Source: an uncultured Gemmatimonadota bacterium
Lineage (GTDB): Bacteria; JAAXHH01
Assembly: GCA_951812955.1 (NCBI GenBank)
Contig: OX638340.1
Span: forward strand, 3,680,001-3,744,000
DNA: 64,000 nucleotides
Reading direction: 5' to 3'
Part shown: in pieces, positions 60,739 to 63,818 of the stretch
How positions within the stretch are numbered: position 1 is the stretch's first letter
Layout of the letters: every line of letters begins with the position of its first letter
Notes under the pieces: model-generated
The model's input: only the letters and a program-made list of their open reading frames with translations
What the model was told of the DNA's origin: nothing
Databases searched by the model: none
Translations under genes and position numbers: made by a program

Positions 60739-62016
60739 CTACCGGCGAGTGTACCGCGCCAGGAGACTCGATATCTCCCGGGTCAGTTCGCTCGTCTTGT
60801 CGTCGCCGCACGAAAGCGTGCTTTCCAGCGCGTCCGCCAGGCCGGCGATCTCATCGCAAAAGGCCTTGTGTTCCTGGGCATGTCTTGCCAGGGCCGCGCG
60901 CAGATCAGCGAGGATTTCCACCGTCTTCGCACCGGGATCGACGGGATCCATCGTGGATGACGCTTGTTCTTCGTCTTCCCCTGCTTCCGCGTCATCCTCG
61001 GTTGCTCGTGCTGCCGTGTCTTCCATATCTTCCCCTGCTTCCGCGTCATCCTCGGTTGCTCGTGCAGATGCGTCTACCTCGTCTACCTGCGCCACTGCGT
61101 CATGCTCGTCTACCCCAGCCACCACGTCTTCCTCCGAAGCCCCGGTCTCATCACCCTCCGGGAATGCTTGCCCCTCGTCGGCGTATCCTATTGCGGATTC
61201 CGGGGCGGACACGGATTCCTGTCCTGGCTCGTCCGTCAAATCGGTCCGGTCGCCGGGTGTACCCTGACCTGCCGGTTCGGCGACGCCGCTGAACGAATAC
61301 GTATCAACGGCCTCCCGTGCATATAAGTCTCCGTCGACTTCCTCTGGCGCTTCATCCGCAATATCACCGTTGGTCACTACTCCGGCGGCCTCCACGGTCT
61401 CTGCAGTTTCCGCCTCGTCCCGCACTTCCTCGGCTTCGATTTCCTCTGGCGCTTCATCCGCAATATCACCGTTGGTCACTACTCCGGCGGCCTCCACGGT
61501 CTCTGCAGTTTCCGCCTCGTCCCGCACTTCCTCGGCTTCGATTTCCTCTGGCGCTTCATCCGCAATATCACCGTTGGTCACTACTCCGGCGGCCTCCACG
61601 GTCTCTGCAGTTTCCGCCTCGTCCCGCGTTACGCTGGCTTCGACTTCCCCAGGCGTTTCATCCGCGATATCAGTTCGTGTTTCCACTTCGGCGGCGTCCG
61701 CGGTCTCTGCAGTTTCCGCCTCGTCCCGGCCGTATACGGTTGCCGTCTCGTCGACAGACTCGGTTAAAGGCTCGGTATGGTCCGGCGCCCGGCCGTATTG
61801 CCGGCGCGGCGTACCGTTGGAATCCGGACGCTCCGGCGCCGGTTCGCCGGTCCGGGAATGCATAAACAGATCGATGGACTCCCTGGACACGAAGTATCTG
61901 CCGTCCTCCAGGTAGTACTCCAGCTTTCCTTCTACGCACATTCGCGTCACCTGGTCGGGCAACTGCTTCATCAAGTCCGCAGTTTCCAGCAAGGTCATCC
62001 ACTGCGTTTCCGCCAT
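60739..62016 (-). CDS. Excisionase-type HTH domain protein with long acidic tandem-repeat region
   Basis: The N-terminus (WMTLLETADLMKQLPDQVTRMCVEGKLEYYLEDGRYFVSRESIDLFM) fits the HTH_17/excisionase pattern. Then ~300 aa that are >35% D/E, containing 34-aa x3(+1) repeats EAETAETVEAAGVVTNGDIADEAPEEIEAEEVRD and 18-aa x2 repeats ARATEDDAEAGED. There is a helical C-terminal ~60 aa. Confidence 0.65.
   Translation of the reverse strand: MAETQWMTLLETADLMKQLPDQVTRMCVEGKLEYYLEDGRYFVSRESIDLFMHSRTGEPAPERPDSNGTPRRQYGRAPDHTEPLTESVDETATVYGRDEAETAETADAAEVETRTDIADETPGEVEASVTRDEAETAETVEAAGVVTNGDIADEAPEEIEAEEVRDEAETAETVEAAGVVTNGDIADEAPEEIEAEEVRDEAETAETVEAAGVVTNGDIADEAPEEVDGDLYAREAVDTYSFSGVAEPAGQGTPGDRTDLTDEPGQESVSAPESAIGYADEGQAFPEGDETGASEEDVVAGVDEHDAVAQVDEVDASARATEDDAEAGEDMEDTAARATEDDAEAGEDEEQASSTMDPVDPGAKTVEILADLRAALARHAQEHKAFCDEIAGLADALESTLSCGDDKTSELTREISSLLARYTRR
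60968..61066. repeat. 54-bp tandem repeat x2 within acidic protein gene
   Basis: The core cttcccctgcttccgcgtcatcctcggttgctcgtgc occurs at ~60975 and ~61029. Confidence 0.8.
61339..61741. repeat. 102-bp tandem repeat, 3 near-perfect copies plus 1 degenerate copy, within acidic protein gene
   Basis: The unit ttcctctggcgcttcatccgcaatatcaccgttggtcactactccggcggcctccacggtctctgcagtttccgcctcgtcccgcacttcctcggcttcgat starts at 61339, 61441 and 61543. A degenerate copy occupies ~61645-61741. Confidence 0.9.
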
Positions 62017-62096
62017 CTTCTCCTCCTGCGCTTATGATCTACTGCCTGTACGCTGGTGTTCCAGCCGCCTTCCGAGTACAGACCATCCGCTCCGGT

Positions 62097-62378
62097 CTAG
62101 AAAACCTCTCCGGCTACCTGCCTGCCGTCGATTCGCAACTGCAATCTAATGCTCAACAACGCTTTTGCAAATACTTCCACGCGGTAGTCGTCGGTCCCGA
62201 TCCGGAGATTCGTGCTCAAAATGCGCGTTTTTCGAAGCGATACGCGTCGGATGCTCCGGTCCCTGCAGACTCCGTCGATGTAAAGCCGGGCGTCCTGGGT
62301 CCAGGTGCTGAATACCCTGATTTCGTGGCCTTTGAATTCCGCCCTGCACTCGACGCCGTCCGGGTCAGACATGTACAT
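62097..62378 (-). CDS. Small hypothetical protein (93 aa), translationally coupled to DUF2851 gene
   Basis: The stop of the upstream gene and this start form TGAATG. Composition is balanced, with an internal two-fold sequence echo (RLYIDGVCRD / RIDGRQVAGE). Confidence 0.45.
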   Translation of the reverse strand: MYMSDPDGVECRAEFKGHEIRVFSTWTQDARLYIDGVCRDRSIRRVSLRKTRILSTNLRIGTDDYRVEVFAKALLSIRLQLRIDGRQVAGEVF

Positions 62379-63818
62379 TCATCTCCTGATGAAGTGCGCC
62401 GAACCGTTCATTACGCATTGGCCGCAGGCCTTGTTCCGGCAAGTTTCGCGGTCTATCTGCAGCAGGCCCTGCTGAAGGATGGCCCGGTCGATGGAGGCCT
62501 TCTTCTCGGGCGTATCGCTGAACAGCAGGTTCGACATCGATTGGATCACGCTGTTGCTGGCCTGTCTGCCGTATCCGGTGTACATTTCCCTGACAAGCTG
62601 CATCCGGTCCGATTGGCTGTCCCGGTCGGCGATGGCGTAGATGAACGGAAGGATCACGTCGATCATCATGCCGCGCTGGCGGTCGCGGCCGATCAGGGCG
62701 GTACGGGCCGTTCGTGATGTTTCCCCGAACACGGTATGCTTCAGCCAGTAGTCGCCGGGCTGGGGCCTGGTCATTTCCTCGAATTGCCGCGTGATCTGCC
62801 GCAGCAATGCGACAGGCCCCCGTCTGGCGCCGATGTCCATCGGGCCGGCGATCAGCGTGTCCAGACCATCCCGAAGGCCCGCCGCAATAAAGTAACTCAT
62901 GGCAGCGAGCCGGACCGTGGGGAAGTTAAAAGGTCTCAGCCTAAAAAACAACCAGTCATGTTCCTGCATGGGGCGGGTGGGAATGGACCGGCTGAAGGCT
63001 TCCCATCGCGTTTCGATTTCCCTGACGTAAGGATCGTCCGGAATTTCCCCGCAGTATGAAAGACGCTGCGAGGGCAGCAGTCCGGCCGCGCCGAACAGTA
63101 CAGCCTGCAAATCGACGATTCGATGGCCGCCACCCGTGCCGACCAGGGCGCGAATCGTCGTCAGAGGCAGACGGCGGGCAAGTGCCTGGAAGGAATCGGT
63201 GTTTTTACCGTATCCCGCGGCCCGCATGGCGAATTCATATAGCGCCTGTTCCGCCGAGACCCGATCCATCCTGCTTGAAATGGCTGCCGCCTTCTGCCGA
63301 AACCTGTCGGATCCTTTCCGATCAAGCAATGCGTGTACGCGCTCGACCGACAACTGTTTCATCAGGCGCTGGCAGGGATAGCCGCCGGGAGTCGGTATCT
63401 CCAGCCTCCGCCGGTACTGTTTGCGTATGCGGTCCAGGCCATGCCGAAAGTGCTCGGATAAAACCAGCGTGGGGATGTACTGCCCGTTCTGTTTCCGGAC
63501 GACCGGCAGTTTTTCGTCGTGCCACATGACTACGTGCAGTACCACGTCATTGTAATGAGGGTCGCGGGTATGGCCATGTCGTTGCCAGTCGGCGGGTCTT
63601 ACATGGATTTCCACGTCACCGCGAAGCCGTTTGCCGGGTCCGAAGGACAGGACCGCCCTGAGGAAATCGGGCCCGCTGTCCTGGTTCAGTGTACCGGGAT
63701 GATACAGCCTGAGTGACCTACCGTCGGTAAGCCGGAGCCTTCCGGCCTTTGGCAATCCTTCCTGCCATAGATGCCAGATGAGCGCTTCCGCTATGTCCGA
63801 ATCGGCGATTTGAAGCAT
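62379..63818 (-). CDS. DUF2851 family protein
   Basis: 479 aa. The N-terminal block LWQEGLPKAGRLRLTDGRSLRLYHPGTLNQDSGPDFLRAVLSFG matches the DUF2851 conserved N-terminus. The fourth Cys, in the C-terminal cluster CRNKACGQC, is my guess at an added feature. Confidence 0.6.
   Translation of the reverse strand: MLQIADSDIAEALIWHLWQEGLPKAGRLRLTDGRSLRLYHPGTLNQDSGPDFLRAVLSFGPGKRLRGDVEIHVRPADWQRHGHTRDPHYNDVVLHVVMWHDEKLPVVRKQNGQYIPTLVLSEHFRHGLDRIRKQYRRRLEIPTPGGYPCQRLMKQLSVERVHALLDRKGSDRFRQKAAAISSRMDRVSAEQALYEFAMRAAGYGKNTDSFQALARRLPLTTIRALVGTGGGHRIVDLQAVLFGAAGLLPSQRLSYCGEIPDDPYVREIETRWEAFSRSIPTRPMQEHDWLFFRLRPFNFPTVRLAAMSYFIAAGLRDGLDTLIAGPMDIGARRGPVALLRQITRQFEEMTRPQPGDYWLKHTVFGETSRTARTALIGRDRQRGMMIDVILPFIYAIADRDSQSDRMQLVREMYTGYGRQASNSVIQSMSNLLFSDTPEKKASIDRAILQQGLLQIDRETCRNKACGQCVMNGSAHFIRR

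Follow-up and report, generated by a model that had tools for sequence, protein, structure and literature searches.

RacA of Bacillus subtilis is composed of a winged HTH, a disordered region and then a DivIVA-binding coiled coil (PMC4914108). Par and RocS join a MerR-type winged HTH to a coiled coil; RocS possesses, in addition, a C-terminal membrane-binding amphipathic helix, and such a helix has been predicted for Par (PMC11500499). The linker of PopZ is characterised by an acidic fraction of 0.29 and a charge of -0.28 per residue, and it is furthermore Pro-rich (23-29%) and tightly held in length, at 93 ± 1 aa (PMC9512792). Acidic disordered regions are also known to auto-inhibit DNA-binding domains and to speed their target search (PMC10250230).

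The gene analysed here is located in a stretch of 64,000 nucleotides of an uncultured Gemmatimonadota bacterium, which is referred to below, at its full length, as the window. Like RacA, pSK1 Par and RocS, the encoded protein starts with a MerR-type winged HTH. In the AlphaFold2 model, the head is followed by the disordered residues 57-355 and then by a confidently predicted, heptad-spaced helical hairpin; this departs from the layout of MerR-family regulators, as head and hairpin lie some 300 disordered residues apart. The original prediction, made from the DNA letters of this stretch, had described the same anatomy of an HTH, a disordered polyacidic tract and a helical C-terminus, which is now backed by the AlphaFold2 model and by the fold matches reported below.

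Gene, family and genomic context

Features of the locus are compiled in Table 1. The 425-aa product comprises three modules and has a pI of 4.05 and a net charge of -92 (120 D+E vs 28 K+R). The ORF is intact, and its frame is maintained across homologues: in about 75 of them a single ORF spanning the N-domain to the C-domain is kept, although the middle of the protein is unalignable. The N- and C-domains show 79-90% amino acid identity at ~83% nucleotide identity, matching the conservation of the flanking enzymes, and GC3 is 0.74-0.80 in the N-domain as well as in the C-domain. Moreover, the GGAGG core of the Shine-Dalgarno sequence AGGAGGAG is positioned 5 nt upstream of the ATG and is invariant across all orthologous loci, the remainder of the 80-bp intergenic region upstream of the gene being variable. 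The gene is genuine; it resides on the chromosome and has been inherited vertically within a narrow clade of uncultured bacteria.

Table 1. Features of the locus (positions are those of the window)
Feature	Position	Strand	Details
C-terminal helical hairpin	60745..60936	(-)	aa 361-424 (helices 361-403 and 408-424)
Two tandem 54-bp (18-aa) units, ARATEDDAEAGED(M/E)E...	60958..61065	(-)	aa 318-353
Disordered polyacidic linker	60952..61848	(-)	aa 57-355; AF2 pLDDT <50
Four tandem 102-bp (34-aa) units	61318..61725	(-)	aa 98-233; TRF and unit dissection
Short linear motif NGTPRRQYGRAP	61783..61818	(-)	aa 67-78
Acidic N-terminal winged helix, beta-alpha-alpha-beta-beta-alpha	61852..62001	(-)	net charge -4, pI 4.6; invariant Cys27
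Complete CDS	60739..62016	(-)	ATG start, 425 aa, uninterrupted
Shine-Dalgarno sequence AGGAGGAG	62020..62027	(-)	3 nt upstream of ATG
orf93, co-directional upstream 93-aa ORF	62097..62378	(-)	basic, pI 9.5
DUF2851 gene	62379..63818	(-)	479 aa, pI 10; first of the conserved three-gene string

The family is small, with 31 matches among the 1.84 billion representatives searched, and neither Pfam nor NCBIfam scans returned a model for the whole protein, in agreement with the original statement that it could not be assigned to a known family. Within its clade the gene belongs to the core and occurs in single copy. About 75 orthologues were collected, and every named one originates from a MAG labelled as Gemmatimonadota or Latescibacterota. 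The allele itself was absent from the record on exact look-up of the 425-aa protein. The viral-contig scan found no relatives of the protein, and PADLOC gave no match for it, for DUF2851 or for orf93. It should be added that the isolate names of several MAGs suggest sponge or coral hosts, and that public databases wrongly list at least one orthologue as a VapC toxin.

The gene order DUF2851, orf93, the gene itself and the convergent DUF993-nth-ubiX-ubiE-ubiA was identical in every syntenic locus examined, 22 species representatives being among them. The highly conserved orf93 was always found between DUF2851 and the acidic-linker gene, the stop of DUF2851 abuts or overlaps its start, and it is a probable operon partner of the acidic-linker gene. 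Homologue search confined orf93 to the same clade and gave no functional lead. PDB searches with DUF2851 and orf93 returned no match, NCBIfam scans of orf93, DUF2851 and DUF993 produced weak, sub-threshold matches only, and in the literature DUF2851 has one incidental mention, without a function. No promoter-like site was detected in the 80-bp upstream gap and no convincing terminator was found, so that co-transcription of the gene with DUF2851 and orf93 is possible but unproven. No conserved RNA hairpin, operator or palindrome was shared by the upstream intergenic regions of 20 loci, which contained assorted GC hairpins only. The tRNA scan of the window was negative, an integrase was present neither near the gene in the window nor among the called genes of five tabulated orthologous loci, and no att-like flank was evident around the gene.

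N-terminal winged helix

The head had been described as HTH_17-like, and this stands at the level of the profile and the fold, whereas the query on its own remains under the Pfam gathering score of 27 bits for HTH_17 (PF12728, MerR-like superfamily), at 12.3 bits over its full length and 16.0 bits (E=0.015) when the domain is scored alone; both alignments span the model end to end (positions 1-50 of 51). At the family level, all 27 aligned members and relatives matched HTH_17 at E<=1 (the best at 9.7e-11), while MerR or MerR_1 (PF00376/PF13411) was matched by only one of the 27, with E values of 0.0055-0.12. The family profile also recovered the Pukovnik Xis 4j2n at E=9.1e-5. The predicted head superposes on solved winged helices, topped by DNA-bound Xis, BldC, RdfS, AlpA, MerR, Par and RacA, and its best sequence and structure matches are excisionases, namely 4j2n, RdfS, AlpA and Tn916 Xis. 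The term 'excisionase-type', used in the original prediction, is therefore correct for the fold only.

Residues Q22, T24 and R25 of the recognition helix and G39-R40 of the wing tip are conserved, and at several places in the wing the query has E or Y instead of the basic residues of Xis. From the fold only, we infer that the head may bind double-stranded DNA, and its acidity (net -4, pI 4.6) weakens the case.

Acidic linker, tandem repeats and the RRxYG motif

AlphaFold2 predicted the linker without secondary structure and without contact to any domain. In the window protein its D+E fraction is 0.32 and its net charge per residue -0.28 (both computed on aa 57-363), so that no other linker in the family is as negative; residues 101-355 carry a net charge of -79. 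Over 70 members the composition is nearly uniform, with D+E of 0.29 ± 0.03 and a net charge per residue of -0.24 ± 0.04. The length, on the other hand, spans 128-325 aa, the sequence is unalignable between members, and for every genome beyond ~5% divergence the nucleotide alignment is interrupted exactly at the linker. In distant family members near-neutral Pro/Lys/Glu linkers replace the acidic tract, with head and tail being retained.

Both tandem arrays proposed originally were recovered by TRF, the 102-bp unit in 3.9 copies at 61334-61728 (92% matches) and the 54-bp unit in 2.3 copies at 60987-61108, its 18-aa units beginning at aa 318 and 336. Among the 34-aa units, the first (aa 98-131) is a degenerate copy with 79/102 identical nucleotides (77%), the second and third (aa 132-165 and 166-199) are identical to each other at 102/102 positions, and the fourth (aa 200-233) is identical at 89/102, its first 85 nt being exact. 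Shifted by 102 nt, the sequence matches itself exactly over as much as 187 bp, which is equivalent to a perfect repeat of ~289 bp and cannot have arisen by chance. The expectation that the repeat number changes rapidly was confirmed, since between one and four 34-aa units were counted among genomes with 93-96% identical flanks, the proteins varying from 296 to 443 aa. Furthermore, TRF detected in-frame repeats of their own in nearly every orthologue, and the periods were all multiples of 3, apart from two weak and imperfect arrays (score <=76). As judged from these sequence comparisons, the linker turns over fast in sequence and length through in-frame tandem duplications and deletions, while its composition is held constant. 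The repeat tract can serve as a strain-level length marker, and it is also a likely source of assembly errors.

The short linear motif has the family consensus NGTPRRxYGRAP, in which R71, R72, Y74 and G75 are invariant. Its position shifts across sub-lineages (aa 67, 89 and 114-115) and its sequence is kept; distant members retain it as RKYG.

C-terminal helical hairpin

The hairpin was modelled by AlphaFold2 at a pLDDT of ~95 and displays a regular a/d heptad pattern with 3-4 spacing. Its end, ELTREISSLLARY, is almost invariant, Arg-rich and amphipathic (muH 0.63-0.67), and the last 16 residues of the tail are invariant, or nearly so, across orthologues. Such strong conservation is indicative of a conserved surface through which the tail interacts. 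The C-domain profile gave nothing significant against Pfam and PDB, the best matches (E=0.0014-0.25) being unrelated helical proteins, a PDB sequence search with the whole-family profile produced chance-level helical matches only, and a relation of the C-domain to DUF536, RacA or another family was undetectable. We considered H379/H383/C387 (spacing i, i+4, i+8) as a His-His-Cys metal site and rejected it as a family-defining feature, as these positions are Q/Q/Y in the low-GC lineage. The C-terminal domain and the RRxYG motif are without described relatives and would define a new family.

Possible function and alternative explanations

Our preferred reading, to which we attach a probability of roughly 40%, is, by analogy with RacA, Par and RocS or with PopZ, that of a DNA-tethering or architectural adaptor protein. 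With help from the basic RRxYG motif, the head would attach to chromosomal DNA, possibly in the cooperative manner of Xis and BldC, and the tail would self-associate, dock to a conserved partner or to the membrane, or do both. The acidic linker, repelled by DNA, would act as an extended spacer holding the tail away from the nucleoid, and it could also auto-inhibit the head or damp its non-specific DNA binding; gain and loss of repeats would then alter the reach and the charge of the spacer between strains. Counting against the tether is the acidity of the head, with net -4 and pI 4.6 as compared to +5 and pI 10.5 for the aligned Pukovnik Xis. A role as a precise 'ruler' is unlikely, because linker length is unconstrained (128-325 aa, vs 93 ± 1 aa in PopZ), and the polyanionic charge is inessential to the core function of the family, given the near-neutral Pro-rich linkers of distant members.

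A tentative second possibility is that the protein regulates transcription at specific sites, or serves as an architectural factor in development, after the fashion of BldC and Xis. The winged helix would then bind direct repeats at a few promoters, the hairpin would only dimerise the protein, and auto-inhibition by the acidic tail would sharpen specificity. Against this, no operator-like element is conserved upstream of the gene, where only the Shine-Dalgarno sequence is, and linkers of 130-325 aa are atypical among bacterial regulators. Furthermore, conservation of the C-terminal surface far exceeds the needs of a simple dimer interface, and the winged helix is acidic.

The same acidity of the head (net -4, pI 4.6) can be turned into an argument for a scaffold or chaperone without DNA binding, in which the winged helix would be re-used for protein binding (cf. 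CbpM, TniQ) and the linker would sequester basic partners or cations. DUF2851 and orf93 might be such partners: both are encoded co-directionally upstream, basic and co-conserved with the gene. We nevertheless hold this for unlikely, considering that the fold neighbours are mostly DNA-bound structures, that Q22, T24, R25 and G39-R40 are conserved, that AlphaFold2 predicted no contact between linker and domains, and that the same head and tail occur in distant members with neutral linkers.

Somewhat more doubtful again is the picture of a DNA-binding counterpart of a PopZ-like hub, i.e. a polyanionic 'brush' or scaffold of a condensate that is anchored to the nucleoid and maybe complexed with DUF2851 and orf93. 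Charge and length of the linker would determine its reach and material properties, and strains would retune these as in-frame repeats expand and contract. If true, it would provide the first functional context for DUF2851 and would reveal composition-level selection on a disordered region associated with bacterial chromatin.

An artefact is improbable, be it an ORF that arose spuriously from repeats or a wrongly assembled number of 102-bp copies. Short-read assemblers have difficulty with an exact run of 187 bp at offset 102, and long antisense ORFs cross the repeats; however, the ORF is certainly real on account of the conserved N- and C-domains, the frame and the synteny, and the presence of the gene in some 75 orthologues speaks against a spurious repeat-derived origin. 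Only the assembled count of four units (1-4 in relatives) is in doubt.

The original prediction had further suggested a DNA-mimicking acidic tail that competes with the nucleoid or counters restriction; in its favour one may quote the extreme net charge of -92 beside a fold of the DNA-binding type. This idea is largely contradicted and is, in our estimate, even slightly less probable than an artefact: the gene belongs to the core and keeps the same neighbours in all syntenic loci examined, a mobile-element, phage or defence context was absent in the viral, tRNA and PADLOC scans, the tract is predicted to be disordered and is hypervariable and unalignable, as opposed to the folded, rigid charge arrays of Ocr and ArdA, and distant family members lose the acidity. 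Least credible of all is a recombination directionality factor, with the protein serving an integrated element as a genuine excisionase. The best matches of the head (4j2n, RdfS, AlpA, Tn916 Xis) would suggest this, but it is contradicted by the lack of an integrase or tRNA nearby in the window, of an integrase among the called genes of the five tabulated loci and of an evident att-like flank, by neighbours that are DUF2851, orf93, DUF993, nth and ubiX/E/A in all syntenic loci examined, by the absence of viral relatives in the viral-contig scan, and by a protein of 425 aa that is acidic, in comparison to ~60 aa and basic for excisionases.

Should the DNA-tethering reading hold, the gene would encode a hitherto undescribed protein, specific to its clade, that organises or tethers the chromosome of an uncultured and apparently host-associated lineage. 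It would moreover unite, in a single gene, a linker of free sequence and held charge density (D+E 0.29 ± 0.03) with a linker length that in-frame tandem repeats alter from one near-identical strain to the next. The gene makes selection on composition, rather than on sequence, directly testable in bacteria.

Comparison with known systems

Excisionases and BldC (4j2n, 6ama/6amk and RdfS 8dgl) are single-domain proteins of ~55-70 aa, whereas the query has 370 extra residues. The aligned core of Pukovnik Xis is basic (net +5, pI 10.5) and the head of the query is acidic; the genomic context of the latter is, in addition, chromosomal and non-mobile.

RacA (PDB 5i44/5i41) shares no sequence homology with the query beyond the generic fold. 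Its linker is short and not polyanionic, unlike the long polyanionic linker described here; the head of the query is nearer to Xis and BldC than to RacA, and its C-domain is an unrelated hairpin with no known link to DivIVA. In pSK1 Par of Staphylococcus (PDB 8csh) and RocS of Streptococcus the C-terminal helix is short, amphipathic and basic, and the end of the query is comparably amphipathic and Arg-rich, with muH of ~0.65. However, the query has no DUF536 match, its terminal helix is packed into the hairpin in the AlphaFold2 model and not left free, and the 300-aa acidic disordered region is absent from both of these proteins.

Eukaryotic proteins of the HMGB1/HMGA type (PMC10250230, PMC11773362) resemble the query in combining a module of the DNA-binding type, a polyanionic disordered region and an adjacent basic motif, and by this analogy electrostatic auto-inhibition is plausible for the query as well. 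They differ in fold and kingdom and have shorter D/E tracts, and a contact between tail and head is not predicted in the query.

PopZ, the alphaproteobacterial polar organiser, is without homology to the query and has a short helix in place of the winged HTH; linkers of the query family contain 9% Pro and are 128-325 aa long, as compared to 23-29% and 93 ± 1 aa in PopZ. Both are nevertheless arranged as a binding module, an acidic disordered linker and conserved C-terminal helices, the latter forming the oligomerisation domain in PopZ. The acidic fraction is 0.29 in PopZ as in the query family, PopZ carries a net charge of -0.28 for each residue and the family one of -0.24 ± 0.04, and in both it is the composition of the linker, and not its sequence, that is conserved.

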